A stretch of DNA of 42,504 nucleotides from contig CAYJJH010000002.1 of NCBI GenBank assembly GCA_964370495.1, positions 1-42,504 on the forward strand, in the 5' to 3' direction. This document shows, piece by piece, positions 1,431 to 39,635 of this stretch; position 1 is the stretch's first letter; each line of letters begins with the position of its first letter. The stretch comes from an uncultured Prevotella sp. GTDB lineage: Bacteria; Bacillota; Clostridia; Christensenellales; UBA1242. Under the pieces are notes generated by a model. That model saw nothing but the letters and a program-made list of their open reading frames with translations. It was not told where the DNA came from and searched no databases. The position numbers and the translations under genes are program-made.

Positions 1431-1507
1431 TGGTGCACCCCGTAGGATTTGAACCTACAACCGACTGGTTCGAAGCCAGTTACTCTATCCAGTTGAGCCA
1501 GGGGTGC
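1431..1507 (-). tRNA. tRNA-Arg, anticodon UCG, CCA encoded
   Basis: The reverse complement folds as a cloverleaf: acceptor GCACCCC/GGGGTGC, D-stem GCTC/GAGT, anticodon stem ACTGG/CCAGT, anticodon loop CTTCGAA (anticodon TCG), T-arm GTAGG-TTCAAAT-CCTAC, discriminator A, then CCA. Length 77 nt. Confidence 0.9.
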
Positions 1508-1515
1508 GTATCACA

Positions 1516-1544
1516 ATTATACAAAAAACACCCTGCAATCGCAA
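1516..1544 (-). promoter_or_regulatory. sigma-A-like promoter for tRNA-Arg, embedded in the upstream terminator hairpin
   Basis: Minus strand: TTGCGA (1544-1539), 17-nt spacer, TATAAT (1521-1516), then 8 nt to the mature tRNA 5' end at 1507. Confidence 0.45.
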
Positions 1545-1550
1545 GGTGTT
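1519..1550 (-). terminator. intrinsic terminator of the DUF378 gene
   Basis: Minus-strand hairpin AACACCTTGC-GATT-GCAGGGTGTT (10 bp with one mismatch) followed by TTTTTTGT. It lies 26 nt after the stop codon at 1576. Confidence 0.55.
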
Positions 1551-1575
1551 TTAATATTATATACTAAATTTAAAA

Positions 1576-1803
1576 CTATGCTTCTTTATTTTTCATCATA
1601 GTTCGGGCCATTACTGTAATTATCAATACTAATGCAGATACACCGATAATTGAATACATAATTCTACCAAACGCACTTATTGGATCACCAAACATCATAA
1701 GCATAAGGTCCATTCCGAATAAACCCGCAATAAGATAGTTTAATCCACCTATCAATAAAATCACAAAAGCTATTGCATTTATCCACTTCATACTATTTTT
1801 CAT
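1576..1803 (-). CDS. DUF378-family small membrane protein
   Basis: 75 aa with two TM helices and the pattern LLIGGLNYLIAGLFGMDL typical of DUF378 (YuzA-like). A strong SD (AAGGGGGG) precedes the ATG. Confidence 0.75.
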   Translation of the reverse strand: MKNSMKWINAIAFVILLIGGLNYLIAGLFGMDLMLMMFGDPISAFGRIMYSIIGVSALVLIITVMARTMMKNKEA

Positions 1804-1841
1804 ATTCCCCCCTTGATTTATATTGTGCAGAATATAATAAA

Positions 1842-2954
1842 TTATTCAATTCTATCTCTTAGCTTCCTGTGATAGGTAATTCCAAATCGATGTGCCTCGT
1901 CCCGTATTCTTTGTAATAATCTAAGCGCATAGCTTCGCACTGGCAGAACAATGGGTTCATCTTGGTCCGTAGTATAAATAAGTTCAAACTTCTTAGCCAA
2001 ACTTATAAACTTAATATCGCCGCTTTTTTCAACAGCCGAAAGTTGCCCTTTACCACCGTCAATAATAATAAGATCGGGTTTTCCCCACTCTGTATGTTTT
2101 AACCTGCGCCTCAACACTTCGTTTAACGAAAGAAAGTCATTATTTCCTTCTCCGTGTTTTATTCTAAATTTACGATAAAATTTTTTATCTGGTGCTCCAT
2201 CAATAAAAACGGACATAGATCCAACCATCTTTTCCCCATCAGTATGTGAGATATCAAAACATTCTATTCGTCTTGGCACTTTTTGCATACCCAAAATTTC
2301 ACCCAACTCCCTGCACGCACCCAGCGTGAATGCATCTGCTTCCTCGGCTGTGGCTTGAACTCTTTGTCTTGTTTTCAATCTTTGAATCATATACAAGGTA
2401 TTACGATAAGCAATAGCTAATTCGAATTGTTGCATCTCGCTGGCTTTGTTCATTCTGTTTGTCATTATCTCTATTACTTCGGGGTAACGCTTGCCCTTCA
2501 AAAATTCTTCGGCTTTGATTGGGTCGTTAGCATAAACGCTTCGAATTATATCCATTAACGGCCCCGCAAATATACCATTAAAATATGGGCCATAATGCCT
2601 ACCCTTCTTTTTGGTATCTCTTACTATCTCTATTATATTTTCATCAATTCTTATATAAGGAAATTTTTTATCATCTCTTAATTGTATATTGTACTTAGGT
2701 TTATGTTTATTTACTAAATTAGCTTCTAAAAATAAAGCATCATTTTCAGAATTAAGAACAAACCATTCAAAATCAGATATCATTGATATCATAGCCGTAG
2801 TCTTATCATCATGTGCACCTTTGAAATATGAAGACACACGGTTCTTTAAATTCTTGGCTTTTCCGATGTAAATAATATTGCCGCCAATGTCTTTCATTAC
2901 ATAGACGCCAGGCGATGAAGGTAGGTTTTTTATCTTATCTATAATATTATTCAT
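1842..2954 (-). CDS. uvrC: excinuclease ABC subunit C, short form lacking the C-terminal (HhH)2 domain
   Basis: GIY-YIG motifs are present (PGVYVMKD..IIYIGKAKNLKNRVSSYF, E..N). A UVR-like helix (MQQFELAIAYRNTLYMIQRL) follows. The RNase H-like endonuclease motifs are also present (FDISH, IIDGGKGQL, RDEAHRF). Only 370 aa. Confidence 0.85.
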   Translation of the reverse strand: MNNIIDKIKNLPSSPGVYVMKDIGGNIIYIGKAKNLKNRVSSYFKGAHDDKTTAMISMISDFEWFVLNSENDALFLEANLVNKHKPKYNIQLRDDKKFPYIRIDENIIEIVRDTKKKGRHYGPYFNGIFAGPLMDIIRSVYANDPIKAEEFLKGKRYPEVIEIMTNRMNKASEMQQFELAIAYRNTLYMIQRLKTRQRVQATAEEADAFTLGACRELGEILGMQKVPRRIECFDISHTDGEKMVGSMSVFIDGAPDKKFYRKFRIKHGEGNNDFLSLNEVLRRRLKHTEWGKPDLIIIDGGKGQLSAVEKSGDIKFISLAKKFELIYTTDQDEPIVLPVRSYALRLLQRIRDEAHRFGITYHRKLRDRIE

Positions 2955-2982
2955 TGTCAGTTGGGTATAAATAGTATATCCT
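2954..2982 (+). promoter_or_regulatory. sigma-A-like promoter positioned for a leaderless ftsH transcript
   Basis: TTGTCA (2954-2959), 17 nt, TATCCT (2977-2982), 7 nt, ATG at 2990. No SD lies between. The -35 overlaps the uvrC start codon. Confidence 0.4.
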
Positions 2983-5282
2983 ATAAAGTATGAATAAACA
3001 ACAAAATAAAAAGAAGAGTAATAATATTGTATGGATAATTTTAGCAGCTATCCTTATTATTTTTCTTGTACAAATTGGTATGGCACCAGCAGCAAAACCA
3101 ACAATAAGTTTGGATACTTTCTATGAAAAAATTGGAGCAGACGCCAGAGATACAGATGGCAATATCACCTTTGACCCTGCAAACAACCAAATCCAAGGTA
3201 TATATGGACAAGGGTCAACTTTCTATATTATATATGAAGCAGATTTCACAAAACTTACATTAGAGCAACAACAAGCAATAAATGAAAATCCAGGATTAAT
3301 TAAAACTTATGCATCTGTAACTTTATATGATTCAACAAACATCGTTCCAAACATAGTCGCTGAATATCTTTTAGTTGATAATACATTAATTTATGTCTCT
3401 GCACCACTACCTGTGTCTTGGACAGATTATGTTATTCAATTTATTTATCTAATATTAATTCTTGGTGTTTTATTTATGGTATGGCGTGGCTTATCCGGAA
3501 GAAATGGATTATCTGCCATGACACAAAACCGTGCTACCGTAGTATTTAATGGACCAACACGATTTACAGATGTTGCAGGTATCGAAGAAGAAAAAGAACA
3601 AGTCGCTGAAATCGTAGATTTTCTTAAATCACCAAAAAAATATATTGATATGGGTGCAAGAATACCAAAGGGTGTATTACTTGTAGGTGCTCCTGGAACG
3701 GGTAAAACATTACTTGCAAAAGCTATTGCGGGCGAAGCCGGCGTTCCATTCTTCTCTTTATCCGGAAGTGATTTCTCTGAAATGATTGTTGGTGTAGGGC
3801 CAGCAAGAATGCGTGATTTATTTGAACAAGCAAAAGCTAATGCGCCTGCTATTATATTCCTTGATGAAATTGATTCCATAGCAAGAATGCGTGGGGTTGG
3901 GACATCAGGGGTTGCAGAAGAAAACGAACAAACACTTAACCAGCTTCTTGTTCAAATGGATGGATTTTCTAAATCCGAAGGTGTTATAGTTTTCGCCGCA
4001 ACCAACAGACCAGATATACTAGATCCAGCAATTTTACGTCCAGGCAGATTTGACCGTCAAATCGTTGTTCAGATGCCAGATGTAAAAGGAAGAGAGCAAA
4101 TATTACGTGTACATGCAAAAAACAAACCATTGAGTGATGATGTAGATCTTAACCGTGTTGCAAAAATCACAAGTGGTTTCTCTGGTGCTGATCTTGAAAA
4201 CCTTCTTAACGAGGGCGCAATTATATCAGCAAAAGACAATAGAAACAAAATCTCAATGCAAGACCTACTGGAAGCATTAAATAAAGTCCTTCTTGGTCCA
4301 CAAAAGAAATCAAGAATTATTACAGATAAAGACAAAAAGATTACTGCCTATCATGAAGCGGGTCACGCTATTATATCCAAGGTATTAATGCCAGATCAAA
4401 CCGTACAAGAAATATCAATAATCCCAAGAGGCATGGCGGCTGGTTATACCCTTACAAATGATCAAGATAATGAACATCACCACCAAAGCCTAAGTCTACT
4501 TAAAAATAAAATTGTTATGCTACTTGGTGGACGATGCGCAGAGGAATTATTCCTTGGTGATATATGCACCGGTGCATCTAATGATATAAAGGTAGCAACA
4601 AACCTTGCTGAAAGTATGGTTACAAAATGGGGAATGAGCGAAAAGCTTGGACCACTGTTCTATGGTAAAGAAGACGAAATGGCACTTAGATTATATAATA
4701 GTAAACAAGTAAGTGAATCATTACAATCTGTTATTGACTCTGAAATAAAAACATTGGTTACAGATGCATTAGCAAAATGTAAAAAAGTACTTTCAGAGCA
4801 TTCAGCTAAAGTAAAAGTTATGGCTAATGTATTATTATCAAATGAAACAATTTACGCTGACGATATCGAACTTATTATGAGAGGCGACAAAGAACAAGAC
4901 ATAATCAACAAGATAACAGAAAGACAACAAACCGAAATAAAAATGGCAAACGACAACCGAGCAAATGCACTTGTGGAAAAGTTAACTCCTATACTTGAGC
5001 GCTCTATGGAAATAGCGCTTCTACATAAAGAAGAAAAACTTGTAACACAAGAGCATATTACAAAGTTAGAAGAAAATATTAAGCTTGCTAAAGACTATGC
5101 TCAAAAAACGATGGAGATGCCACCTATCCCTACTATCGACTTCAAATCACTTGAAGAATACCCCGCTATGATCAAAACTAAATTAGGCACAGAAGATAAA
5201 CCAAAAGAAACAGAAAAGGCAACTAAGCCTCAACCTAAGACAAGAAAGAAAACAACCAAGTCCAAGGATAAGGAAGAAAAAA

Positions 5283-6633
<1,351 letters not shown>

Positions 6634-7575
6634 TTAATTTTTATTTAATATTGATTTAATCTCGTATATAATATCGCCAGCTTGATAATTTATATTCCCC
6701 ACCCGTTTAAGTAATAGCGAACGCATATAAAACATCCAAGCTATCATAAATAAAACACCAGTTAATACAAACATTATAGTAGTATATATTGCAAGTCTCC
6801 AAGAAATGGTAACTATTGATATAACCAACGACATAGCCGCAAACAACAAAAACAACATAGCATAGACTTTTGAACCTGAATTTTCTCTGCCGTGATCTCT
6901 TGGGGCTACATAATTTTCTTGTCTTCTTTTTAATGTAGCTTCTCTTTGCTTTTGTTCTTCAACCGAATATTCACTGCTATACCAAAGTTCTTTAACTTCC
7001 CAACCTACCCAATTGTTCATTGTGCGCATATATTTATTTTTTGCAGGATTAGACTTTAATACATCAACCACATCAGATGTATAAAGTTCTGCATTTACAA
7101 TACCATTAAAGTATCCATCAAGTAAGAACATTTCAGATGCAAATCTTGTCATTCTGTCTGACATTAATGCTTTCTTTTTCTTCCATCCTGTAAATTCTCT
7201 AAACCCATAAATTATTGGAGCCTTGCTTTCTTTCTGCTCTTTTACCATACGTTCAAATAATCCAGCAGGATTAAATAAATCGATATCTGCTGTCATTACA
7301 ATATTACCCGTAGCAACCGAGAAACCAGCGGTAACAGCAGCATGTTTCCCAAATCTTCCGTTAAGTGTTACAACTCTAAGATTTCTATATTTCTTTGCAT
7401 AATTAATTAAAATCAATCTTGATTCATCTGTACTACCATCATCAACAGCAATAATTTCCCAATCCATATTCATCTTGGTACGGATATTTTCAAGATCATC
7501 TATATATTTAATAAGAACATCTTTAAGATATAATTGCTCATTATATATCGGCAAAATTAATGATACGGTCCCCAT
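6634..7575 (-). CDS. family 2 glycosyltransferase with C-terminal TM helices (GtrB/CsbB-like polyprenyl-phosphate glycosyltransferase)
   Basis: LPIYNE...AVDDGSTDES...TADIDL GT2 motifs plus two C-terminal hydrophobic helices. Confidence 0.8.
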   Translation of the reverse strand: MGTVSLILPIYNEQLYLKDVLIKYIDDLENIRTKMNMDWEIIAVDDGSTDESRLILINYAKKYRNLRVVTLNGRFGKHAAVTAGFSVATGNIVMTADIDLFNPAGLFERMVKEQKESKAPIIYGFREFTGWKKKKALMSDRMTRFASEMFLLDGYFNGIVNAELYTSDVVDVLKSNPAKNKYMRTMNNWVGWEVKELWYSSEYSVEEQKQREATLKRRQENYVAPRDHGRENSGSKVYAMLFLLFAAMSLVISIVTISWRLAIYTTIMFVLTGVLFMIAWMFYMRSLLLKRVGNINYQAGDIIYEIKSILNKN

Positions 7576-7581
7576 ACCTAT

Positions 7582-7611
7582 ATAATACCCCTACAAGCCA
7601 AATTAACGCAA
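7582..7611 (-). promoter_or_regulatory. sigma-A-like promoter positioned for a leaderless GT2-gap transcript
   Basis: Minus strand: TTGCGT (7611-7606), 18 nt, TATTAT (7587-7582), 6 nt, ATG at 7575. Confidence 0.35.
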
Positions 7612-7618: not shown

Positions 7619-7646
7619 TTGCATAATATATTTTAGTATGTATAAT
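7619..7646 (+). promoter_or_regulatory. sigma-A-like promoter positioned for a leaderless fba transcript
   Basis: TTGCAT (7619-7624), 16 nt, TATAAT (7641-7646), 6 nt (AATTTT), ATG at 7653. No SD. Confidence 0.5.
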
Positions 7647-7652
7647 AATTTT

Positions 7653-8576
7653 ATGGACAAAAACACCGCAAAAGAGCTTTTTGATTGGGCGGAGAAAAAC
7701 AAAAGAGCAATAATAGCATTTAATATTTCAAATATGGAAACCATCAAAGGAATTACAAACGCACTTGAAAATTTGCAATGCCCTGCAATTTTACAGGTTT
7801 CAGCAGGTGCCAGAAAATATACTGGTACAAAATACTTGCGCGCCTTATTTGATACAGCAAAGGAAATGTCAACTGTGCCACTGGTTTTACATTTAGACCA
7901 CGGAGATACATTTGAATTATGTAAGGACTGCATAGACAATGGGTTTGATTCTGTTATGATAGATGGCAGTCATTTAGATTTCGAAGACAATATCGCACTT
8001 ACAAAAAAGGTCGTTGATTATGCACATAAACATAATGTTTTGGTAGAAGGCGAGCTTGGTCAAATATGCGGAATAGAAGATGATATAAATGTAACAGACA
8101 GTAAATATACAGACCCAGAAATGGCAAAAGAATTCGTAGAAAGAACAGGCGTAGACAGTTTAGCTATTTCTATTGGAACCTGCCATGGTGCATATAAATA
8201 CGCAGTTGGCAGTACCCCAGTTTTACGAATGGATATATTAGAAGAAATTCATAAACTTATTCCTAATACCCCACTGGTTTTACATGGTGCATCTTCGGTT
8301 ACACCGGAATATGTATCACGCATAAATGAATTTGGTGGAAAAATAGAAAACGCTCTTGGCATCCATGAAAGTGCAATTGCAAAAACTATTGATTTTGGCG
8401 TAAGAAAAATAAACATAGACAGCGATGTACGGCTGGCCGTTACATCTACTATAAGAAAATATTTCCATGATAATACTTCTGTATTTGATCCACGCAGTTA
8501 TCTTAAAGAGGCAATGAAAGAAGTAACCAAACTGGCCGAAGAAAAATTAAAATTTTATACAGTTCCAAGAGAATAA
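7653..8576 (+). CDS. fba: class II fructose-1,6-bisphosphate aldolase
   Basis: MDKNTAKELF..AIIAFN, LHLDHG and GTCHGAYK motifs. I trimmed the start from the track ORF (7560) to the ATG at 7653, because the upstream extension overlaps the GT2 start and the promoter. Confidence 0.9.
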   Translation: MDKNTAKELFDWAEKNKRAIIAFNISNMETIKGITNALENLQCPAILQVSAGARKYTGTKYLRALFDTAKEMSTVPLVLHLDHGDTFELCKDCIDNGFDSVMIDGSHLDFEDNIALTKKVVDYAHKHNVLVEGELGQICGIEDDINVTDSKYTDPEMAKEFVERTGVDSLAISIGTCHGAYKYAVGSTPVLRMDILEEIHKLIPNTPLVLHGASSVTPEYVSRINEFGGKIENALGIHESAIAKTIDFGVRKINIDSDVRLAVTSTIRKYFHDNTSVFDPRSYLKEAMKEVTKLAEEKLKFYTVPRE

Positions 8577-8592: not shown

Positions 8593-8621
8593 TTGATTAA
8601 AAACAAGCATAGTTTTATACT
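8593..8621 (+). promoter_or_regulatory. sigma-A-like promoter positioned for a leaderless small-ORF transcript
   Basis: TTGATT (8593-8598), 17 nt, TATACT (8616-8621), 7 nt, ATG at 8629. Confidence 0.45.
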
Positions 8622-8628
8622 GCATAGT

Positions 8629-8817
8629 ATGGAACAAATGATGGAGAAAAGACGATGTCTTAATGCCGAATTGTTTATACAAGAAAATTATAAAGTAGAT
8701 TTTGATAAAGGATTTTTTGAATTTTGCAAAGAGAAAGAATCTTTTGATGAAATATCAAGAACTATGTTAGAAAGAAAAGGATGTTACCAATTTAATGATG
8801 AAAAAGTTATGGGCTAA
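8629..8817 (+). CDS. hypothetical small protein (62 aa from ATG 8629; the track ORF starts at TTG 8593)
   Basis: Open frame only; no recognisable family. The start was chosen because the promoter geometry points at ATG 8629. Confidence 0.35.
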   Translation: MEQMMEKRRCLNAELFIQENYKVDFDKGFFEFCKEKESFDEISRTMLERKGCYQFNDEKVMG

Positions 8818-9046
8818 AATTATTATTGATTACAAAGTTGTACGCAGTTTGGTAATTGAAATAGATGATGAAAAATTCGACAGCGAACTTATACGTATAT
8901 GCGAAGGGTTACAAATTCCTACGCCCATAATAACAGCTTGTCAAAAACAAAGTTTTTTCGAATACAACATATTAAAATTAAAGCAGCGTGATTTCGTAGA
9001 AACTATACACTTTGATATATTGGAATTTAATGTTATTATAGACTAG
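8795..9046 (+). CDS. hypothetical small protein (83 aa), overlapping the previous ORF by 23 nt in the +1 frame
   Basis: Open frame whose stop abuts the mnmE start (TAG ATG). A weak AAAGGA lies 12-13 nt upstream. No recognisable family. Confidence 0.45.
   Translation: MMKKLWAKIIIDYKVVRSLVIEIDDEKFDSELIRICEGLQIPTPIITACQKQSFFEYNILKLKQRDFVETIHFDILEFNVIID
9012..9039 (+). promoter_or_regulatory. extended -10 sigma-A-like promoter positioned for a leaderless mnmE-mnmG transcript
   Basis: TTGATA (9012-9017), 16 nt, TGtTATTAT (9031-9039), 7 nt, ATG at 9047. Confidence 0.45.
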
Positions 9047-10324
9047 ATGAAAACTATTGTTGGGATCGCAACCCCACAGGGTGCAGGAGGCATAGGAATA
9101 ATAAGAATATCCGGCGAAGATGCGCTTGATATTACATCTAAAATGTTTTCAGAAAAATTGATTCCAAGGCATGCAACATTAGGGCAAATAAACGGCAAAG
9201 GTTTTAAAGACACGGGCATAGCGATTTATTTCCAAGCACCAAACAGCTATACGGGCGAAGATGTTGTAGAAATTCAATCTCATGGCGGATATCATCTTGT
9301 AAATAAAATACTTGAAACCGCTATCTCTTGCGGAGCTACACTTGCAGAACCCGGGGAATTTACAAAGACTGCTCTGCTTAATGGCAAGATGACACTTAGC
9401 GAAGCAGAAAATATTATAGACATAATCAATGCAGAATCTGATCTTGAATTAACCAACAGCACAAAGGTAATGTCGGGTGAGCTTCATAATTTGTTATCTA
9501 AAATTCAAGAAGAACTTATTTCAATTCGGGCAGAGATCTATGCATATCTTGATTACCCCGAAGATTTAGAATCCCCAGACATTCCCGTTGCCAGAGTGCA
9601 TACAATAATCAAACAAATTGAAAACTTATTATCCACGGCGTCCAGGGGACAAATAATAAAAAATGGAATAAAGGTAGCCTTTCTTGGGGAACCAAATGCC
9701 GGCAAAAGCAGTATCTTTAATGCCCTGCTTGGAGACAATCGAAGCATAGTAACAAACATAGCGGGCACAACAACAGACATAATAACTGAAACGATATTAC
9801 ATAAAGGAATAAAAATAAACTTCATAGACACAGCAGGACTTAGAAAAGGTGATCTATCCGTAATTGAACAACACGGAATAGATAGAACAAAAACCGTAAT
9901 GAATTCGGCTGATATATTGTTAATTATAATTGATGCAACCACAATGAATACTGTATCTTTCCCAAACCACAAAAAACATATCAAGGTCTATAATAAATCT
10001 GATCTTGTTAAGACAAAGCAAAAAGATGGCATATGCGTCTCTGCAAAAACAAAAGCTAATCTAGATAAAATCTTAGATGAAGTTGTCCATTTAGCAATGG
10101 ACACAACGGTATCAAGTGATGTTTTAATGCTAACAAACAAACGACATATAACAGAGCTTGAAAAAGCTTTGAATGTATTATCACAAATTACACAATCAAT
10201 GGAACTGGACAAAATGAGTGCAGATATAACAACTGCACTTGAACATATTGGAAAAATAACAGGGGCAGATATAGATGAAAGAACGCTAGACGAAATTTTT
10301 TCTAAATTCTGTTTGGGGAAATAA
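9047..10324 (+). CDS. mnmE: tRNA modification GTPase MnmE
   Basis: N-terminal IATPQGAGGIGIIRISG, G1 GEPNAGKSS, G3 DTAG, G4 NKSD and the C-terminal FCLGK motif. 425 aa. Confidence 0.95.
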   Translation: MKTIVGIATPQGAGGIGIIRISGEDALDITSKMFSEKLIPRHATLGQINGKGFKDTGIAIYFQAPNSYTGEDVVEIQSHGGYHLVNKILETAISCGATLAEPGEFTKTALLNGKMTLSEAENIIDIINAESDLELTNSTKVMSGELHNLLSKIQEELISIRAEIYAYLDYPEDLESPDIPVARVHTIIKQIENLLSTASRGQIIKNGIKVAFLGEPNAGKSSIFNALLGDNRSIVTNIAGTTTDIITETILHKGIKINFIDTAGLRKGDLSVIEQHGIDRTKTVMNSADILLIIIDATTMNTVSFPNHKKHIKVYNKSDLVKTKQKDGICVSAKTKANLDKILDEVVHLAMDTTVSSDVLMLTNKRHITELEKALNVLSQITQSMELDKMSADITTALEHIGKITGADIDERTLDEIFSKFCLGK

Positions 10325-12089: not shown

Positions 12090-12629
12090 TTCTTTAAGAC
12101 GTTGTGTTAAAAGATTTTTAGTAGCACCTGACTTCATTTTAGAAACAAAATCGAAAAGTAATATGGTTTGTTTATGGTTAAGTGTAGCTTTCTTTGTACC
12201 TGTTTTACCCATAGAAAGTTCGAATACTTTATCTACGATAGCCTTCATTCTTTCAGCAAAATCACCTGTTTGATTATTTTTTATAACTCTAAGCAATTCT
12301 TCCGCTTCATTGATTTTTGAACCAACTATAAGTGAAGCAACAAACACTAAATTAGCGCCTGTACAACTTTCAGGGCTTACACCGTAAACCAACTTAGACA
12401 ATAATGCACTTGATAAAATGCTGGCTTTTAATTTACTTTCAGAAACTTTTTCAAGCATAGCAAATACATCGCTTCCAGAGAAAGAATTTGTGTCCGCATT
12501 CAATTTATATTCCCATACATCAACAGCAGTAGCAAAATCTATGCCAGCAAGTTCACGTAATGCATCCAAATTGTTTGTATTTGCAACATTTATTATAAGT
12601 TCATATTTTCTTAATTCTTTATTATTCAT
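12084..12629 (-). CDS. hypothetical soluble protein (181 aa, apparently all-helical)
   Basis: Long clean ORF with its own promoter-like element. No family recognised. Its stop overlaps the mnmG stop within the palindrome TTATAA. Confidence 0.6.
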   Translation of the reverse strand: MNNKELRKYELIINVANTNNLDALRELAGIDFATAVDVWEYKLNADTNSFSGSDVFAMLEKVSESKLKASILSSALLSKLVYGVSPESCTGANLVFVASLIVGSKINEAEELLRVIKNNQTGDFAERMKAIVDKVFELSMGKTGTKKATLNHKQTILLFDFVSKMKSGATKNLLTQRLKEL

Positions 12630-12636
12630 AGTAGTT

Positions 12637-12665
12637 ATTATATTATAAAGCTCTTATTTTGACAA
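12637..12665 (-). promoter_or_regulatory. sigma-A-like promoter positioned for a leaderless transcript of the 181-aa ORF
   Basis: Minus strand: TTGTCA (12665-12660, inside the lysK 3' end), 17 nt, TATAAT (12642-12637), 7 nt, ATG at 12629. Confidence 0.5.
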
Positions 12666-14219: not shown

Positions 14220-14226
14220 AACTTAT

Positions 14227-14255
14227 ATTTTATAATTTTTTATGCAAAAAAGCAA
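14227..14255 (-). promoter_or_regulatory. sigma-A-like promoter positioned for a leaderless lysK transcript
   Basis: Minus strand: TTGCTT (14255-14250), 17 nt, TAAAAT (14232-14227), 7 nt, ATG at 14219. Confidence 0.45.
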
Positions 14256-22459: not shown

Positions 22460-22460
22460 A
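22452..22460 (-). promoter_or_regulatory. extended -10 element (TGtTATAAT) positioned for a leaderless addBA transcript
   Basis: The minus strand reads TGTTATAAT (22460-22452), then 5 nt (ATTTT), then ATG at 22446. No SD. Confidence 0.5.
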
Positions 22461-22466
22461 TATAAT

Positions 22467-25075: not shown

Positions 25076-25082
25076 TAATAAA

Positions 25083-27783: not shown

Positions 27784-27817
27784 TAAAATATATCACTTTT
27801 CACCCAAATAGGGCAAA

Positions 27818-30106: not shown

Positions 30107-30115
30107 TGCATATAG

Positions 30116-30122
30116 TTTGACA
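30116..30122 (-). promoter_or_regulatory. near-consensus Spo0A box (TGTCAAA)
   Basis: The minus strand reads TGTCAAA, one mismatch from TGTCGAA. It lies 10-16 nt upstream of the spoIIE GTG. Confidence 0.25.
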
Positions 30123-30167: not shown

Positions 30168-30196
30168 TTGTTGTCTATACTTTTTTTGTATATAAT
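30168..30196 (+). promoter_or_regulatory. sigma-A-like promoter positioned for a leaderless secA transcript
   Basis: TTGTTG (30168-30173), 17 nt, TATAAT (30191-30196), 6 nt (GTGTTT), ATG at 30203. Confidence 0.5.
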
Positions 30197-30202
30197 GTGT
30201 TT

Positions 30203-32845
30203 ATGGGTTTATTTTCAAGTGACAATACAAGAGCATTAAAAAAGATAGGAAGAATAGCAGATTTAGTTATAGCCTTAGAAGAAGACTATGCTAACTTAAC
30301 GGATGCAGAACTTATTGCAAAAACCGAGGAGTTCAAGCAAAGATTAAACAATGGCGAAACAATGGATGATATCCTGCCAGAAGCTTTTGCAACGGTTCGT
30401 GAAGCAGGTTATCGTGTACTTGGGCAAAAGGCATACTATGTGCAAATCCTGGGCGCTATAGCATTACACCAAGGACGAATAGCAGAAATGAAAACGGGTG
30501 AAGGTAAAACTCTTGTTTCTACAATGCCCTGCTACCTTAACGCACTTCAAGGCAAAGGCGTACATATTATAGAAGTCAATGAATATCTTGCAAAAAGAAA
30601 TAGCGAATGGATGGGTAAGGTTCACAGATTCCTTGGGCTTTCTGTTGGACTAAGTCTTTCCAGAGTAGACGCAAGTGAAAAAAGATCAGCTTATGCTCAT
30701 GACATAACCTATGTAACAAGCAGCGAAGTCGGTTTTGATTATCTTCGTGATAATGTTGCACACACCAAAGAAGCCCGTGTTTTACGCGGTCTTAACTTTG
30801 CAATAATAGATGAAATAGACAGTATTTTAATTGATGAAAGCCGTACCCCACTTATTATGTCGGCACCAACAAAAGACAACAGCGATCTTTACAAAGTAGC
30901 TGACAAATTTGCAAGAACATTATCCGAAGGCGATTTTGAAATTGATCTTAAAGAACGCGCAGTTCGTCTTACCGAAGATGGAATAACCAAAGCCGAGCGT
31001 GCATTTAATATTGAAAACATAAGTGACGCGGACAATATGGAACTTAATCACTTTATAGACAATGCATTAAAAGCTCATTATTTATTTGCAAGAGATGATA
31101 ATTACATAATCAATCAAAACAAAGAAGTAATTATAATTGACCAAAATACAGGGCGTGCTATGATAGGCAGAAGATACAGCGATGGACTTCACCAAGCAAT
31201 AGAAGCCAAGGAAAATGTGCCAATAAAAAATGAAGACAAGACCGTTGCTACGGTTACTATACAAAATTTATTTAAACTGTTCAGAAAGTTAGCAGGTATG
31301 ACGGGAACAGCCAAAACCGAAGAAGATGAATTCAAAAAAATCTACGGTGTGGATGTTGTATCTATACCCACAAATAATCCTATTCAAAGAGAAGATGCAC
31401 CCGATGTTGTCTTCCAAAAAGCATTAACAAAACTTAATGCTATTTATGAAGATGTTTTATATAGATACGAACAAAAGCAACCCGTGCTTATTGGTACCAC
31501 TACCATTGATAAAAGTGAGGAGATTTCAAAATTCCTTAAAACAAAAAAAATTCCACATGTTGTGCTTAATGCAAAGAACCACGAAAAAGAAGCGGATATA
31601 ATCGCAAGCGCAGGAAGATTAGGTAGCGTTACAATCGCAACAAATATGGCGGGTCGTGGAACAGATATATTGCTTGGCGGAAACCCAGAACATATGGCTA
31701 CAATAAGACTTGAAAGAGAAGGCTTCACAGAACAAGACATCTATAATGCTACTGCTTATTTTGAAACCAAAGATGAAACAATATTAGAACACAGAAAACT
31801 GTTCAAACAATATCTTGAAGAATACAAACAAGAAACATCAAAAGAGAAAGAAGAAATAATCAAGCTGGGTGGTCTACATATAATTGGTACAGAAAGACAC
31901 GACAGTCGTCGTATAGACAACCAATTACGCGGAAGATCAGGCAGACAAGGAGACCCAGGAAGTTCTATCTTCTATATTTCTTGTGAAGATGAAATTATGA
32001 AGCGCTTTGGAAAAGATGTTATAGGCGGAACTATGCGCCTGTTTAACATAGACGATGTGCAATCTAAAATGATTACCAGATTATTTGAACGCGTACAAAA
32101 AAGAATTGAGGGCTTCTATTTTGACGCAAGACGAGCTACATTTGAATTTGATAATGTATTAAATGATCAAAGAGAACTTATTTATGAAGAACGAAATAAA
32201 ATTTTAGATGGCGAAGATGTACACGAACAAATACTTAAATCCTTCCCGGATATAGTACATAACCTTGTTAGTCTTGCAATAGATCAAACACAATATTATA
32301 CAGAATGGGATCTGGAAAAAGCCAACTCTGTTTTATCTGATAAATTATTTGGAACGGAAACACAATATCTGGACGAGGAAAATACCAGGGGTGCAACATG
32401 GACAGAAATATATGAAATGGTACTTGAAGCTGTAACTGATACATATGAAGAGAAAATTAAAAAACTTAAAGAAGACGGTTTCGACTTCTCTGCTTTTGAA
32501 AGAGATGTCTTGCTTTCAATAGTAGACAGAAAATGGGTAGAACATATTGACGCAATGGTCAATTTAAGAAACGGCATCTCGCTTCGTGGATACAGCGGCA
32601 AAGATCCACTTATGGAATATCGACGTGAAGCCATTGGTATGTTTAATGAAATGATAGAAAACATCAGCCACGACAGTTCAATCTTTTTATTCAAAGTAAA
32701 GGTTGAAGCAAGAAAACGCGTTGAACCACAATCTAAACCAATTAAAGTAAATAAAATAAATCTTAATACAAAACCCGTAGGCAGAAATGATGCATGTCCG
32801 TGCGGTAGCGGTAAGAAATATAAATCTTGCTGTGGCAAAGCTTAA
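30203..32845 (+). CDS. secA: preprotein translocase ATPase SecA
   Basis: MKTGEGKT Walker A, IIDEIDSILIDE, TNMAGRGTDI, and the C-terminal zinc motif CPCGSGKKYKSCCG. I placed the start at ATG 30203 (MGLFSS), not the GTG at 30197 that abuts the -10. Confidence 0.95.
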   Translation: MGLFSSDNTRALKKIGRIADLVIALEEDYANLTDAELIAKTEEFKQRLNNGETMDDILPEAFATVREAGYRVLGQKAYYVQILGAIALHQGRIAEMKTGEGKTLVSTMPCYLNALQGKGVHIIEVNEYLAKRNSEWMGKVHRFLGLSVGLSLSRVDASEKRSAYAHDITYVTSSEVGFDYLRDNVAHTKEARVLRGLNFAIIDEIDSILIDESRTPLIMSAPTKDNSDLYKVADKFARTLSEGDFEIDLKERAVRLTEDGITKAERAFNIENISDADNMELNHFIDNALKAHYLFARDDNYIINQNKEVIIIDQNTGRAMIGRRYSDGLHQAIEAKENVPIKNEDKTVATVTIQNLFKLFRKLAGMTGTAKTEEDEFKKIYGVDVVSIPTNNPIQREDAPDVVFQKALTKLNAIYEDVLYRYEQKQPVLIGTTTIDKSEEISKFLKTKKIPHVVLNAKNHEKEADIIASAGRLGSVTIATNMAGRGTDILLGGNPEHMATIRLEREGFTEQDIYNATAYFETKDETILEHRKLFKQYLEEYKQETSKEKEEIIKLGGLHIIGTERHDSRRIDNQLRGRSGRQGDPGSSIFYISCEDEIMKRFGKDVIGGTMRLFNIDDVQSKMITRLFERVQKRIEGFYFDARRATFEFDNVLNDQRELIYEERNKILDGEDVHEQILKSFPDIVHNLVSLAIDQTQYYTEWDLEKANSVLSDKLFGTETQYLDEENTRGATWTEIYEMVLEAVTDTYEEKIKKLKEDGFDFSAFERDVLLSIVDRKWVEHIDAMVNLRNGISLRGYSGKDPLMEYRREAIGMFNEMIENISHDSSIFLFKVKVEARKRVEPQSKPIKVNKINLNTKPVGRNDACPCGSGKKYKSCCGKA

Positions 32846-34530: not shown

Positions 34531-36269
34531 AATGTATCCTCCATTGCATCTGTTTCATTAAAGAACTTTGCATAATCAGGATTAGACTTCACAAGTTCTT
34601 TATGTGTGCCTTTTACATAAATGTTGTTACCACGTGAAAAATACACTTCATCTGCTGTTTTACATACTATGGGGTTGAATGTTATAAACAATGCTGTTTT
34701 TCCTTCCGTCCTTAATCTTTTGATTGTGTTATCAATTATGTCCGAAGACAAATGCAAAAAGCATCTGTTGAAAATATAAAACTGTGCTGGTTTTAATATA
34801 CAACGAACAATGTTAATAATACTCTTTATATTTTGTGCAGTTTTAGATCTGTTAGATATTTTAGAATCTAAAAACAAAGGTACGGAAGCCAGATGCACGG
34901 CACCAATATCATTAAATGCAGAAAGAATTTGTTCATCTGTTAAATCTGGATTAAACATTTTAATGTTATCACGCACGGTACCATTAACAAAGTGCGGATA
35001 TGCTTGTGATATTGACATTATCTTGGAACGGAAATATTTTTTGTTTATATCTTTTATATTTACACCATTAAGTAATATTGAGCCTTCGCTGGCATCGATG
35101 TAACGAAGCAGTATTTTCATAAGTGTGGTTTTACCGCCACCAGCTCCACCAGAAATCACAACTAATTTACCCGGACTTAATTCCAAAGAAAACTTAGATA
35201 GTGTACGCCTGCCGTTCCAGAAAGTATGACCAAGCTCATGAAATATCAGAGTCGAACCAAACTCTGTCGGTATATTTGTTACGCCGCTTTCTACGTCTTC
35301 TTCGGGCAATTCCATAAACTCACAAACAGAATCACAATATGCTGTACCTAATGTTCTTGCGCTACACGAAGACTTATAAAGAACATTACACGCATTCCAC
35401 ATATAATTTACATATTGTATAACGGTAGACAGGATAACCAACTGCTCGGCTTTTGCTGCGTTTTCAATTGATGTAGCACCAAATAAAATTATAGCCGCTG
35501 TTACAAAAGCAAAAATAATAGCATTTAGTTCCACAGATAAATATCTTGCTCTGTCGATTGAATTACCTTGCTTACTATAAATTTCACTTTGCTTGACACT
35601 CTCTACTCTGCGCTCGCCCGCTTTACCCAGCATCCTAATATCTCTGGCGCCTACGATACCTTCCCTGACCGTCTCAAAGAAAGAGTCATACGCCTTTATA
35701 GTTTTCGGCATAATTTTTTTAACAATATATGTAGATATAAAAAAGTAAGCCAGCACAAAAGGAATCGCACATAACGTTATTAAAAAGTAATCAAATGATA
35801 AAAACAAGATAAATGCCAAACTACCTAGAATAGATATTGGAACAACTACCATAAGTTTAATGTTTTCTCTGCTTACTAATCTTATTGCATTTGTACCTGT
35901 GGTTAGTGTTGCAAGCGCTTTACCTGTACCATATTGACTTAGTTTATCTGTTGGAATTCTTGTAATTTTTTCAAATAGCGACATTCTAGCATTTGTTCTA
36001 ACTTTGCCTACATATACCGCAACCCTGTATTCATTATACATAGTAACTAGCATAATTAATATTATAAAGCCCAAAACTATGCCGGCATTAAGCAAGAAGT
36101 CATTCATAGTTGGTAATGTACCAGCATCATTTTTAATAAGATCAGTAGTGCCTTTTAAGATAAGCGGATAAACAAGCAATAATATTTCTTGTATGACAGT
36201 AAAAATTATACAAACCCAAAATAATTTGTTTGTATCCTTATAAAAGCCATATTTCCGTATTTTGCTCAT
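34527..36269 (-). CDS. ABC exporter half-transporter (TMD-NBD) with an intact Walker A but degenerate Walker B, signature and H-loop
   Basis: Exporter-type TMD. Walker A GGAGGGKTT and a Q-loop (ISQ) are present. At the signature position it reads TAQNI, Walker B is FYIFNR, and the H-loop is ITFN. Confidence 0.8.
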   Translation of the reverse strand: MSKIRKYGFYKDTNKLFWVCIIFTVIQEILLLVYPLILKGTTDLIKNDAGTLPTMNDFLLNAGIVLGFIILIMLVTMYNEYRVAVYVGKVRTNARMSLFEKITRIPTDKLSQYGTGKALATLTTGTNAIRLVSRENIKLMVVVPISILGSLAFILFLSFDYFLITLCAIPFVLAYFFISTYIVKKIMPKTIKAYDSFFETVREGIVGARDIRMLGKAGERRVESVKQSEIYSKQGNSIDRARYLSVELNAIIFAFVTAAIILFGATSIENAAKAEQLVILSTVIQYVNYMWNACNVLYKSSCSARTLGTAYCDSVCEFMELPEEDVESGVTNIPTEFGSTLIFHELGHTFWNGRRTLSKFSLELSPGKLVVISGGAGGGKTTLMKILLRYIDASEGSILLNGVNIKDINKKYFRSKIMSISQAYPHFVNGTVRDNIKMFNPDLTDEQILSAFNDIGAVHLASVPLFLDSKISNRSKTAQNIKSIINIVRCILKPAQFYIFNRCFLHLSSDIIDNTIKRLRTEGKTALFITFNPIVCKTADEVYFSRGNNIYVKGTHKELVKSNPDYAKFFNETDAMEDTL

Positions 36270-36277
36270 TCCTTTAT

Positions 36278-36306
36278 AATATATATTGATGTGCGTTATT
36301 TAGCAA
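36278..36306 (-). promoter_or_regulatory. sigma-A-like promoter positioned for a (near-)leaderless ABC-pair transcript
   Basis: Minus strand: TTGCTA (36306-36301, inside cwlD), 17 nt, TATATT (36283-36278), 8 nt, ATG at 36269. Confidence 0.4.
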
Positions 36307-36962: not shown

Positions 36963-37141
36963 TATGTAATTGTCCAAGCCTAGGCGGGTTACTTAATGCA
37001 TTTTTTAATTTATTTAGATGTCCCTGCCATTGCTATCAAAATGTAGTGCCACAAATTCCACTTGAACCAGCACTGCCTACATCTACTACACCTACATGTA
37101 TTTGGGCTTATGAAACACCATGCCCATCACAACCTTGCTAA
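36959..37141 (+). CDS. cysteine-rich small protein (60 aa, 9 Cys), translationally coupled to cwlD
   Basis: GGAGGT lies 6 nt upstream of an ATG that overlaps the cwlD stop (ATGA). Sequence: MICNCPSLGGLLNAFFNLFRCPCHCYQNVVPQIPLEPALPTSTTPTCIWAYETPCPSQPC. No family recognised. Confidence 0.55.
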   Translation: MICNCPSLGGLLNAFFNLFRCPCHCYQNVVPQIPLEPALPTSTTPTCIWAYETPCPSQPC

Positions 37142-37210
37142 TATAATAAATTTCTTTTTTGTATAGTACAATTATTTCTGCACATAATATTTTCAAGTGG
37201 AGGAATAAAA

Positions 37211-38062
37211 ATGGAAAATTTTACAACAGAACAACACAAAAGAGATTCATCAGGCAAGGCAATAGTCGAAAGTCCCGACAAGACAATAGCAAACCTTCGT
37301 GAGAAACAACGAAACCAAAACTTTATAAATGGTGTAGTAATTTCTGCGATGGCGTTGACTGTGGTTTTGACCGGGACTTTACTTGGTGCTACGGCTTCGG
37401 CAAATAGCGATCTTAAGTCCCAAGTTGAAACATTAAAAGAACAAAATGTCGCAATGGTAAATTCTCAAAAGGTTAGTGATGCAAATAATTACACTGGAAC
37501 ATCTACCATTTCTAATACAAGCAACAGAGATTATAATTATGATAATCGTTACGACTACGCAAATAATACTGCGGATAGAAATTATACAGATAGATATTAT
37601 ACATCCCCAGACAGAAACAGAAATACAAGTTACAACAATACAACAAACAATGCTAGCAACATTAATGAAAGAAATTCAAATTATACACCAAGAAGAACCA
37701 GGGATTACACATCAAATTATAACAGAGGTAATTATAGAAGAAACAGAACACAAACATCAAGCAATGAAAATAATTACACAGAGACGCCTACACCAGTGTC
37801 ATATACACCATCAACAAATGATGTGAATAAAATTAATGATAAAATGGTAAACAGCTATACTTCAAAGCCAACTTCTGCTACATACCCAAATAAAAAAGAA
37901 CCCTCAGAAAATACAAACGTTGTAAATCTACCAAGATTATCCAGTTATATTTCGGATATAACCGGACAAAAAACAAAAGATTATAAAAGAGATACATATA
38001 CCAGTTCAGCAGATATAAGTAAAACTAATGATAAATACAAACCTACTATAAAAAATTTATAA
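37211..38062 (+). CDS. bitopic membrane protein with a short coiled coil and a long Asn/Tyr/Thr/Arg-rich low-complexity ectodomain
   Basis: Strong GGAGGA SD. One TM helix (FINGVVISAMALTVVLTGTLLGA), then SDLKSQVETLKEQN (a topology like FtsB/DivIC), then about 200 aa of N/Y/T/R/S-rich sequence. Confidence 0.65.
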   Translation: MENFTTEQHKRDSSGKAIVESPDKTIANLREKQRNQNFINGVVISAMALTVVLTGTLLGATASANSDLKSQVETLKEQNVAMVNSQKVSDANNYTGTSTISNTSNRDYNYDNRYDYANNTADRNYTDRYYTSPDRNRNTSYNNTTNNASNINERNSNYTPRRTRDYTSNYNRGNYRRNRTQTSSNENNYTETPTPVSYTPSTNDVNKINDKMVNSYTSKPTSATYPNKKEPSENTNVVNLPRLSSYISDITGQKTKDYKRDTYTSSADISKTNDKYKPTIKNL

Positions 38063-38067
38063 TCTAA

Positions 38068-39618
38068 TTAAAATGTCATCGCCTTATCGGTCATGGCATT
38101 TTCTTTTATTTCGATTACTCTGGTTGCTACTGTTTCAATTATTGTTTCATCGCTTGTATAAAACAATAGTACGCCTTTATATTTTTTCATACCCTCGTTA
38201 AGAGCAGTAATACTTTCCAAATCCAAGTGGTTTGTAGGCTCACTCATTACCAACATGTTGCCTTGATGCAGCATAGTTTTAGCAAGCATACATCTAACCT
38301 TCTCACCACCAGATAATACATTAGCGGTTTTTAGTGCCTCTTCGCCCGAGAATAACATACGTCCAAGCCAACTTCTTATAAAGGTTTCATTTGTATCTTT
38401 TGAATATTGTTTAAGCCAATCTAAAAGATTTAATTTAATCCCTTCAAAAAATTCTCTGTAATCGCCAGGCAAATATGATGCTTTAATCGTCTTACCAACT
38501 GTTACTGTACCACTGTCTGCTTTTTCTTTACCCATTATACAGTTAAATAATTTATCCACACGAATGCTTTTGTCTGTTAAGAAAGCGACTTTCTCGTCTT
38601 TGTTTATTCTGAAACTTACATTTTTGAAATAACCTTCCATAGTTAAATTTTCTACTGCCAATATTTCATTACCTGGCTCACGTTCACATTCAAAATTTAT
38701 GTAAGGATATTTACGTGAAGATGGTTTTAAATCTTCTATCGTAAGCTTTTCAAGTTCTTTCTTACGACTTGTGGCTTGTCTGGATTTACTTGCATTAGCC
38801 GAGAATCTAGCGATAAATTCTTTTAATTCTTCTGCTCTGGATTCTGCTTTTTTATTTGCTTCTTTTTGTTGGCGAAGTAAAAGCTGACTGGTTTCATACC
38901 AGAAATCATAATTTCCAATAAACATATTTATTTGGCCAAAGTCCACGTCACAAATGTGTGTACATACTTTATTAAGGAAATGTCTGTTGTGAGATACGAT
39001 AATCGTTGTATTTTTGAAATCAAGCAAGAAGTCTTCAAGCCATCTTGTTCCAGCAAGATCAAGGTTATTTGTAGGCTCGTCCAAGATAAGCACATCTGGA
39101 TTACCAAACAATGCACGTGCAAGCAATACTTTAATTTTAATTTTAGCATCAAGATCCTTCATTTTAAGATCATGGTATTCTTCCCCAACCCCAAGACCCG
39201 AAAGCATAATCCTTGCGTTACTATCCGCATCCCAACCATCAAGCTCGGCAAACTCGCCTTCTAACTCTGCCAATCTATTACCTTGCTCTTCTGTAAATTC
39301 TGTTAATTCATATAGCTTTTCTTTTTCATCCATAATTTCAGCCAATCTTGAATGCCCACCAACAACAGTATTAACCGCCAAAAGATCATCAAAAGCATTT
39401 TGATTTTGCGCCAGTGTAGAAATTCGTTCTCCTCTGCCGGTTACAACTTCACCTTTGTTTGGTGAAATTTCGCCAGACAAAATTTTAAGAAAGGTAGACT
39501 TACCCGCCCCATTTGCGCCAATAATACCATAGCATTCGCCCGGTAAAAATTTAAGATTTACATCTTTAAAGAGCACTCTCTTGCCAAATTGTAATGAAAT
39601 GTTAATTGCTTGAATCAT
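38068..39618 (-). CDS. ABC-F family ATPase (YbiT-like) with a degenerate second ATP site
   Basis: Two tandem NBDs without a TMD. NBD1 has GANGAGKST, VLILDEPTNNLD and VSHNRHF. The inter-domain linker carries FIARFSANASKSRQATSRKKELEK. NBD2 keeps the signature LSGGEKVR, but its Walker A position reads LTDKSIRVDK. Confidence 0.88.
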   Translation of the reverse strand: MIQAINISLQFGKRVLFKDVNLKFLPGECYGIIGANGAGKSTFLKILSGEISPNKGEVVTGRGERISTLAQNQNAFDDLLAVNTVVGGHSRLAEIMDEKEKLYELTEFTEEQGNRLAELEGEFAELDGWDADSNARIMLSGLGVGEEYHDLKMKDLDAKIKIKVLLARALFGNPDVLILDEPTNNLDLAGTRWLEDFLLDFKNTTIIVSHNRHFLNKVCTHICDVDFGQINMFIGNYDFWYETSQLLLRQQKEANKKAESRAEELKEFIARFSANASKSRQATSRKKELEKLTIEDLKPSSRKYPYINFECEREPGNEILAVENLTMEGYFKNVSFRINKDEKVAFLTDKSIRVDKLFNCIMGKEKADSGTVTVGKTIKASYLPGDYREFFEGIKLNLLDWLKQYSKDTNETFIRSWLGRMLFSGEEALKTANVLSGGEKVRCMLAKTMLHQGNMLVMSEPTNHLDLESITALNEGMKKYKGVLLFYTSDETIIETVATRVIEIKENAMTDKAMTF

Positions 39619-39626
39619 AATATTTA

Positions 39627-39635
39627 ATTATAACA
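39627..39635 (-). promoter_or_regulatory. extended -10 element (TGtTATAAT) upstream of the ABC-F gene
   Basis: The minus strand reads TGTTATAAT (39635-39627), then 8 nt, then ATG at 39618. No SD. The element starts 1 nt after the stop of the upstream gene. Confidence 0.45.

Follow-up and report, generated by a model that had tools for sequence, protein, structure and literature searches.

Do the genes of this bacterium carry promoters so close to their start codons that the transcripts lack a 5′ leader? The question is raised by a 42.5-kb stretch of contig CAYJJH010000002.1 (positions 1 to 42,504, ∼34% GC, open reading frame (ORF) coverage 97%; hereafter the window), which comes from an uncultured member of the Clostridia. 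The sequence-only reading of this DNA had listed 14 genes in which a -35/-10 pair ends just upstream of the start codon without an intervening Shine–Dalgarno (SD) sequence, and had predicted pervasive leaderless mRNAs from them. On scripted re-reading, the hexamers, coordinates, spacers, gaps and starts of all 14 arrangements were exact. The feature is real, conserved and lineage-specific. Its positional enrichment, the accompanying split in SD usage, its conservation in relatives and its absence from other AT-rich Clostridia support the leaderless mRNA interpretation as a prediction. We put at about 80% the probability that SigA-type promoters start transcription at the ATG and so give leaderless mRNAs, the operon-internal genes keeping an SD.

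Promoter-like elements are positioned on gene starts

Each site is written here as -35 / spacer (nt) / -10 / gap (nt) to the start codon (Table 1). In the 14 listed sites the spacers were 16–18 nt, the gaps 5–8 nt and the start codon was invariably ATG. All 14 had the features of a SigA promoter, that is, a 16–18-nt spacer or an extended TG. The -35 began with TTG in 11 of the 14, compared to 7.2% of random -10-like hexamers (p = 8e-11), and the remaining three had an extended TG or a 4/6 match at the -35. An independent promoter scan recovered eight of the 14 (ftsH, fba, the small ORF, mnmE, the 181-aa ORF, U32, the ABC pair and ABC-F).

Promoter-like sites as such were not enriched across the window (89 versus 90.7, and 86 versus 85.8, expected from shuffled sequence), and a loose composite motif showed only a marginal excess (21 matches against a Markov expectation of 15.4). 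As these counts equal or barely exceed expectation, a consensus match, or a TATAAT near an ATG, is by itself no evidence. We therefore give weight only to position relative to the gene starts. Eleven of the 21 composite matches fell on annotated starts. Over the 36 gene starts, the gap histogram of strong -10 hexamers peaked at 6–7 nt, and among the 12 two-hexamer sites located ≤60 nt upstream of these starts, nine had a gap of 6–8 nt (0.3 expected; Poisson p = 5e-11). A strong -10 at a gap of 5–8 nt was present at 13 of the 36 starts, as against 3.06±1.6 in dinucleotide shuffles of the upstream regions (none of 2000 shuffles reached 13) and 4.9% of the 1502 non-start ATGs of the window (p = 8e-9). 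The positional enrichment of a TATAAT-like motif over shuffled and AT-matched controls, which the sequence-only reading had named as a check, is thus present at gap 5–8. The arrangement is not an artefact of AT-richness; only its position relative to real starts is significant.

The abutting -10 and the Shine–Dalgarno sequence exclude each other

We scored SD sequences as the duplex energy with the anti-SD ACCUCCUUU, scanned over positions -20 to -3. The energies of the 36 genes were bimodal, 17 genes lying at ≤-5.4 kcal/mol and 19 at ≥-1.8 kcal/mol. Thirteen of the 14 listed genes fell in the class without an SD, as had been claimed. The other, GT2, scored -6.5 solely through an AGGGG upstream of its -10 and therefore upstream of the predicted transcript. 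The genes that had been named as SD-led (15391, 16257, 34530, 36959, addA, comEC, 1803, 1337 and 37211) all scored -7 to -12.5. The -10 signal and the SD were mutually exclusive: the SD was absent from 15 of 16 genes with the -10 and present in 16 of 20 without it (Fisher p = 9.5e-6), so that in the energy scoring of the 36 starts SD presence splits cleanly by the presence or absence of an abutting -10 motif.

The claim that the listed genes head transcription units stood in part. By position it fails for six of the 14 (mnmE, the 181-aa ORF, U32, recR, ABC-F and the small ORF), which lie -17 to +52 nt from the preceding same-strand gene; part or all of the promoter is contained in that gene.

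Start codons are supported by domain coordinates and orthologs

The start chosen in the sequence-only reading differs from that of the longest ORF in five genes (fba, the small ORF, U32, recR and secA). Pfam domains start at residues 1–5 in lysK, mnmE, GT2 and fba, and a longer fba ORF from 7560 is ruled out because the aldolase domain begins at residue 5. Canonical N-termini were found in MnmE (MKTIVGIATP...), U32 (MKQTIELLAPAG; ...ELLAPAG) and ABC-F (MIQAINISLQFG). Within ±40 codons of the listed starts there was no in-frame alternative start with an SD. About 30 lysK orthologs open with ATG-CAT/CAC-TGG at the identical codon and many of them carry GGAGG or GAGGTG 6–9 nt upstream; these SD-led orthologs therefore fix the start independently of the promoter argument. 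Similarly, an SD-led secA ortholog (locus L021) begins with MGF at the aligned codon, and the MG(L/F) start is shared.

The register is conserved in relatives

Relatives were collected by a metagenome scan based on lysyl-tRNA synthetase (LysRS) and by an ABC-F homolog search with contig look-ups. The close relatives are the syntenic contigs L081, L084, L082, L083, L085, L161, L162 and L163 together with L001 (72–85% protein identity, 37–45% GC). The lineage sample amounts to ∼140 kb, to which the window contributes ∼42 kb and the close relatives ∼100 kb.

The same arrangement recurred ahead of the orthologous starts. In L081 and L084, GT2 is preceded by TTGCCT ... TATCAT /6/ ATG and mnmE by TGcTATTAT /6/, and in four relatives the 181-aa ORF is preceded by TTGCAA ... 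TATAAT /7–8/ ATG. The lysK relatives have TTGCAT /17/ TATATT /6–7/; in an alignment of the non-coding upstream regions of four of them the -35, -10 and ATG blocks are invariant, and the spacer and discriminator vary. The same was observed for secA (TGtaTATA(A/C)T /5–6/ in the relatives), where the -35, the extended -10 and the ATG are invariant in L001 and L161 and the spacer and discriminator are variable. In L001, recR has TGaTATATT /5/ ATG and holA the identical TTGTTA /17/ TTTAAT /6/. ABC2 has TATATT /8/ ATG in L161 and L162, ahead of an aligned M(R/S)K(M/I)R start, and ABC-F has TGgTATAAT /7/ ATG in L161 and TGgTACACT /8/ ATG in L162. The addB orthologs show TGcTACACT /6/ GTG, the spoIIE orthologs (TGt)CATAAT /6/ ATG, and the amidase ortholog of L162 shows TAATAT /8/ ATG at the aligned MRY(F/L)A start. 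The start codon is GTG in three probable extra cases (the window amidase, the window spoIIE and the addB orthologs); for amidase and spoIIE it is ATG in the relatives, with the same promoter register. Pooled over the lineage, the -10 read T30/33, A33/33, T28/33, A29/33, A21/33, T33/33.

Some genes differ in context between genomes. U32 carries a TAAAAT /8/ ATG of its own in L081 and L084, both of which lack trmR. In the window, the 83-aa ORF comes after the small ORF and is preceded by an SD-like AAAGGATG; it heads a unit in L081 and L084, as the fba and small-ORF genes are absent there, and has TATACT or TATAAT at gap 7. Judged by these upstream motifs, the same gene appears to change its initiation mode with context. 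Leaderless-type (-10 at gap 6–7) and SD-type upstream regions also alternate between lineages ahead of the same lysK ATG, which implies repeated transitions.

Existing gene calls in the L161 contig (regions 10001–10012 and 12979–12990) disagree with these starts. ABC-F was called three codons too far upstream, the called ATG lying inside the TATAAT (its last two bases), and ABC2 was called three codons too far downstream. The two length classes of homologs in the database (515–518 versus 522–527 aa) probably reflect such miscalls.

The signal is specific to the lineage and goes with compaction

We built a start-agnostic histogram from all ATGs among the 40 leading codons of long ORFs. The gap 5–8 signal was enriched 3.4-fold in the window (p = 2e-4), 4.1-fold in the close relatives and 2.6-fold in a looser group at ∼50% LysRS identity, and it was depleted in controls (0.39-fold in 15 loci of other Clostridia below 40% GC; 0.54-fold at 40–50% GC). 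A strict signature was then defined by a -10 at gap 5–8 that is accompanied by a TTG at the -35 or by an extended TG, in the absence of an SD. Of the 112 ORFs of the window and close relatives, 33 carried it, compared to 4 of 320 ORFs from other Clostridia with less than 46% GC (odds ratio 33, p = 2e-17). The share was 30% of the ORFs in the window, 29% across the window and close relatives, and 0–2% in the control loci. ORFs with an SD only decreased from ∼80% in the controls to 41–45% in the lineage. In the window, the leaderless-type arrangement is present at ∼40% of the genes and at about two thirds or more of the predicted transcription-unit heads. One further locus, L021, appeared enriched in the first histogram (3 versus 0.36); the stricter classification did not confirm this, and its secA is SD-led.

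The divergent start codons of the window are 20, 21, 35, 47, 77 and 96 nt apart, and each promoter of a divergent pair lies partly inside the coding region of the partner, which leaves leaders no room. The AT-rich control Clostridia had a median divergent distance of 216 nt and an ORF coverage of 87%, versus 97% in the window. The closest back-to-back pairs are addB/trmR (22430–22470), ABC2/amidase (36267–36306) and uvrC-like/ftsH (2954–2992), with starts 20, 21 and 35 nt apart, respectively. The opposite-strand -10 boxes overlap in addB/trmR and uvrC-like/ftsH, which implies mutually exclusive binding of polymerase.

Table 1. Promoter-like sites at start codons and SD-led contrast genes of the window (site notation as in the text)
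Feature	Coordinates	Strand	Site and remarks
ftsH	2954..2992	+	TTGTCA /17/ TATCCT /7/ ATG; no SD; divergent from uvrC-like gene (ATG 2954), 35 nt apart
GT2 glycosyltransferase	7573..7611	-	TTGCGT /18/ TATTAT /6/ ATG
fba	7619..7655	+	TTGCAT /16/ TATAAT /6/ ATG
62-aa small ORF	8593..8631	+	TTGATT /17/ TATACT /7/ ATG
mnmE	9012..9049	+	TTGATA /16/ TGtTATTAT /7/ ATG; promoter within preceding 83-aa ORF, whose TAG abuts the ATG
181-aa ORF	12627..12665	-	TTGTCA /17/ TATAAT /7/ ATG; promoter overlaps lysK 3′ end
class-I lysK	14217..14255	-	TTGCTT /17/ TAAAAT /7/ ATG
addB	22444..22460	-	extended -10 TGtTATAAT /5/ ATG
trmR	22430..22469	+	TTGACA /18/ TATAAC /7/ ATG; -35 inside first addB codons; -10 overlaps opposite-strand addB -10
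U32 peptidase	23002..23040	+	ATGACG /17/ TATACT /7/ ATG; promoter within trmR
recR	27778..27816	-	TTGCCC /18/ TGaTATATT /6/ second ATG
secA	30168..30205	+	TTGTTG /17/ TGtaTATAAT /6/ ATG
ABC exporter pair, first gene (ABC2)	36267..36306	-	TTGCTA /17/ TATATT /8/ ATG
ABC-F	39616..39635	-	TGtTATAAT /8/ ATG; promoter within upstream 733-aa ORF
holA (extra candidate beyond the listed 14)	25073..25110	-	TTGTTA /17/ TTTAAT /6/ ATG; no SD; inside comEC 3′ end
amidase (extra candidate)	36277..36293	+	TAATAT /8/ GTG (also TATAAT at gap 10); no SD
spoIIE (extra candidate)	30104..30122	-	TGtCAAACT /7/ GTG; no SD
operon-internal contrast gene	15372..15393	+	canonical SD AAAGGAGG, dG -11.8
further operon-internal genes	16257, 19924 (-), 26246 (-), 34530 (-), 36959		canonical SD
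leadered contrast gene	37170..37213	+	own upstream promoter and GGAGG SD, dG -9.3
further leadered genes, class of 37211	1803 (-), 1337 (-)		SD

Leaderless transcripts as the probable explanation

The elements have the form of a housekeeping (SigA/sigma-70-type) promoter, with a -35 TTGnnn, a spacer of 17±1 nt, a -10 TAnnnT, often with an extended TG, and a discriminator of 6–7 (5–8) nt. RNA polymerase usually starts 7–8 nt past the -10 and prefers a purine. Since the -10-to-ATG distance equals the usual -10-to-start distance, the +1 would be the A of the ATG or lie within 1–2 nt of it. We infer the start sites of transcription from this distance; how the ribosome is recruited is likewise inferred. 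The resulting mRNA would have no 5′ untranslated region (UTR) and no room for an SD, and its translation would begin when a ribosome already loaded with initiator tRNA binds the 5′-terminal AUG directly. A 70S/IF2-dependent pathway for leaderless mRNAs is established in E. coli, mycobacteria and Deinococcus. Leaderless initiation has been reviewed (PMC10568206). Genes reached by read-through only would keep a strong SD, and the organism would run both initiation modes; the retention of strong SDs by such genes suggests that the anti-SD is presumably intact.

Several observations weigh against this explanation. Promoter-like hexamers are abundant by chance in DNA of 34% GC, and any single site could be fortuitous. 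Some of the -10 boxes are weak (TATCCT of ftsH, TATAAC of trmR without the final T, and TTTAAT of holA without A2). Gaps of 5 or 8 nt would require a slightly atypical choice of start site or a leader of 1–2 nt. Four SD-less genes fit poorly (the uvrC-like gene, gerA, hyp179 and spoIIE, which starts with GTG). Finally, 'pervasive' is an extrapolation from the ∼42 kb of the window and the ∼100 kb of close relatives.

The alternative that survives best concerns mnmE, the 181-aa ORF, U32, holA, recR and ABC-F. These genes could be expressed mainly from read-through mRNA by termination–reinitiation or 70S scanning, the internal promoters being incidental or minor. The spacing would suit such coupling (TAG directly joined to ATG at mnmE, holA 7 nt after comEC, ABC-F 18 nt after the upstream ORF and the 181-aa ORF 24 nt after lysK), and there are few convincing intrinsic terminators between these genes. 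We nevertheless consider it unlikely, because the -35/-10 elements of mnmE, the 181-aa ORF, holA, recR and ABC-F are conserved in register though they lie in coding sequence. The 17-nt overlap of U32 with trmR disfavours reinitiation, and U32 has its own -10 in the two relatives without trmR. Other internal genes of the same operons are SD-led, so that SD-less coupling is not the local norm, and the proposal is inapplicable to the divergent unit heads. Read-through and coupling may contribute for these six genes, each of which closely follows a same-strand gene.

Rather improbable is a second alternative, in which transcription begins at promoters farther upstream and yields AU-rich leaders that have no SD; the TATAAT-like element would then serve, in the RNA, as an unstructured AU-rich enhancer of translation (S1-type or Bacteroidetes-like). 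AU-rich leaders are known to support initiation without an SD in Bacteroidetes (group B; PMC6028130) and in Mycoplasma pneumoniae (PMC10568206), the upstream regions here are AT-rich, and several genes have extra -10-like hexamers 10–45 nt upstream. An RNA enhancer would, however, need neither a TTG placed 17±1 nt upstream nor a TG at -15/-14, and would leave the sharp 6–7-nt register unexplained. The motif is absent before the internal genes, which have an SD there instead, whereas group B motifs precede all genes. Divergent pairs 20–35 nt apart have no non-coding room for leaders, and the signal is absent from the AT-rich control Clostridia.

The notion of a chance or annotation artefact (abundant TATAAT-like hexamers, starts picked to fit, true starts elsewhere) draws on the total of promoter-like sites, which equals the shuffled expectation, and on the five starts that are not those of the longest ORF, but it is refuted by the shuffle (13/36 versus 3.06/36), non-start ATG (4.9%), start-agnostic (3.4-fold, p = 2e-4) and AT-matched controls, the last being depleted, and by the match of the chosen starts to Pfam N-termini and orthologs.

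Comparison with known systems

Leaderless initiation at these genes would be a known mechanism in a further lineage and is not a new mechanism. In the GeneMarkS-2 classification, group C genomes have a Pribnow box 6–8 nt from the start of first genes, and 25–50% of their transcripts are predicted to be leaderless; the group comprises 90% of Actinobacteria, 97% of Deinococcus–Thermus and 36 of 1064 Firmicutes (3.4%) (PMC6028130). An earlier survey (Zheng et al. 2011) estimated leaderless ('TA-led') genes in Firmicutes at 4.2% on average and 16.6% at maximum (PMC3160421). In mycobacteria, a 5′-terminal ATG or GTG is both required and sufficient (PMC4633059).

The window resembles group C (Mycobacterium, Streptomyces, Corynebacterium, Deinococcus) in its -10 geometry and in the dual SD/leaderless model. 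Unlike the high-GC members of this group, the window lineage is low-GC (34%) and belongs to endospore-forming Clostridia, and it has the full TATAAT with a clear -35 TTG where the high-GC groups have a bare TAnnnT (PMC3160421). It also differs from the group C exemplars in its extreme compaction, with back-to-back promoters and starts 20–35 nt apart, and in being known here from sequence alone. With the 36 group C Firmicutes and the Firmicutes of Zheng et al. it shares the signal, the phylum and the status of a computational prediction. However, the former are cultured RefSeq genomes, whereas the window lineage is known from metagenomic contigs and metagenome-assembled genomes (MAGs) only, and its local fraction of ∼30–40% of genes exceeds the 2011 Firmicutes maximum of 16.6%.

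Closer in taxonomy are Clostridioides difficile, with leaderless mRNAs at 6 of 1,646 transcription start sites (TSS), or 15 genes (PMC8237595, PMC7438776), and C. phytofermentans, with ∼4% leaderless transcripts and the ribosome-binding site kept (PMC5171806). Both belong to the same class and share the SigA consensus and the canonical use of the anti-SD for leadered genes, but have almost no leaderless mRNAs. The earlier statement that leaderless initiation is exceptional in Firmicutes therefore holds for cultured Clostridia with TSS maps; as a prediction it is not unprecedented (36/1064 in group C; up to 16.6%).

M. pneumoniae is likewise of low GC and compact, and has ∼16% leaderless-like transcripts that are translated as efficiently as leadered ones (PMC10568206). 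It has largely abandoned the SD (8% of genes), the remainder being mostly operon-internal, whereas the window has strong SDs on internal and leadered genes. The likeness to Bacteroidetes group B lies in SD-less starts behind an A/T-rich motif. The group B motif stands before all genes including internal ones and in the transcribed leader (PMC6028130), whereas that of the window has a -35 partner and precedes SD-less genes only. The same non-SD motif at first and internal genes, which defines group B, was not found here, the internal genes having GGAGG-type SDs. We found no literature report of leaderless organisation in uncultured Clostridia or Christensenellales MAGs; the identities of the 36 group C Firmicutes were not seen.

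A possible leaderless default in a clade of gut Clostridia

It appears fairly probable that in a clade of family or order rank, made up of uncultured, endospore-forming gut Clostridia, leaderless mRNA has independently become the default for primary transcripts, with at least two thirds of the units leaderless, extreme compaction, and the SD confined to operon-internal genes. The clade would comprise the window organism, MAG JAZSQY01, GCA_948695535.1 and several metagenomic contigs and, loosely, the set at ∼50% LysRS identity. If so, its leaderless units would include the Spo0A-controlled spoIIE and possibly a tRNA. The trait would go together with the 97% coding density, divergent starts 20–90 nt apart and overlapping back-to-back promoters, and ortholog series of the lysK type would represent repeated SD-to-leaderless transitions at a fixed start codon.

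Such a clade would place low-GC sporulating Firmicutes among the main-mode users of leaderless mRNAs, and the trait would not be tied to high GC, Actinobacteria or Deinococcus. The lysK, secA and 83-aa-ORF series, in which the same start is served by an SD or by an abutting promoter, would offer a natural system for studying the switching of initiation mode. Standard gene callers misplace starts here, and systematic N-terminal errors in MAG proteomes would follow unless a dual leaderless/SD model is used. To judge from the link with compaction and with divergent promoters that overlap, shedding the 5′ UTR may be one way of streamlining a genome.

Other features of the window

The Pfam scans agree with the earlier gene names: ftsH, GT2, fba, mnmE/mnmG, class-I lysK, gerA, addA/addB, trmR, U32 peptidase, holA, comEC, recR, spoIIE, secA, the ABC exporter pair, amidase and ABC-F. 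The presence of SpoIIE and GerA indicates that the host is an endospore former. When species-representative genomes were scanned with SecA, the only matches were in uncultured Clostridia, one MAG (L001) at 78% identity and the rest at ≤54%; the nearest named relatives are Christensenellaceae-like (∼50–75% identity). The lysyl-tRNA synthetase (12654–14219, minus strand) is a class-I, archaeal-type enzyme (PF01921). Its orthologs at ∼50% identity are found on many uncultured metagenomic contigs and provide a natural series in which the upstream region is either SD-led or of the leaderless type.

Two of the poorly fitting genes were looked at individually. The uvrC-like gene (1842–2954, minus strand, start 2954) has no SD and no -10 at gap 5–8. 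The best -10 of this gene, TATACT, stands at gap 18, so that a leader of ∼11 nt lacking an SD is predicted; a GGGGAAG SD occurs in distant orthologs (L097). The gerA start has no SD and no SigA-type -35, and an AT-rich hexamer at gap 4–6 is conserved in L081, L082 and L084. This gene may be served by a sporulation sigma factor. When the upstream region was read as a possible sigma-G promoter, the -10-like heptamer matched at 5/7 positions, with no -35 GnATA partner. The GerA-family gene (region 14267–16688, plus strand) aligned to its Pfam model from profile position 112 onward only (375 aa) and is followed by two ORFs without a Pfam match, in place of recognisable GerAB/GerAC.

A perfect Spo0A box, TGTCGAA, is located at 30152–30158 within the 96-nt spoIIE/secA spacer, and a one-mismatch copy, TGTCAAA (minus strand), overlaps the extended -10 of spoIIE.

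The tRNA-Arg(TCG) gene (1507–1544, minus strand) is preceded by TTGCGA /17/ TATAAT, whose end lies 8 nt ahead of the mature 5′ G (1507). This position of the -10 would leave a precursor 5′ leader of only 0–2 nt, a tRNA counterpart of the leaderless layout; no further tRNAs for comparison were found in the close relatives. The -35 lies in the loop of the terminator hairpin (AACACC...GGTGTT and a T-run) of the upstream DUF378 gene. A perfect 9-bp hairpin (1400–1423) with T-runs on both strands separates the Zn-ribbon gene from tRNA-Arg and looks like a bidirectional intrinsic terminator. Elsewhere in the window, terminator-like sites did not exceed the shuffled expectation.

Several proteins are unusually short compared to the typical lengths of their families: the UvrC-like protein (370 aa), AddA (936 aa), AddB (841 aa) and ComEC (387 aa), encoded at 1842–2954, 17114–22446 and 25083–26246, respectively, on the minus strand, with AddA and AddB in the second interval. 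The ComEC of the window has the Competence domain only. FtsH (774 aa) has a long lysine-rich tail, and the next gene overlaps it. The short proteins fit a streamlined genome.

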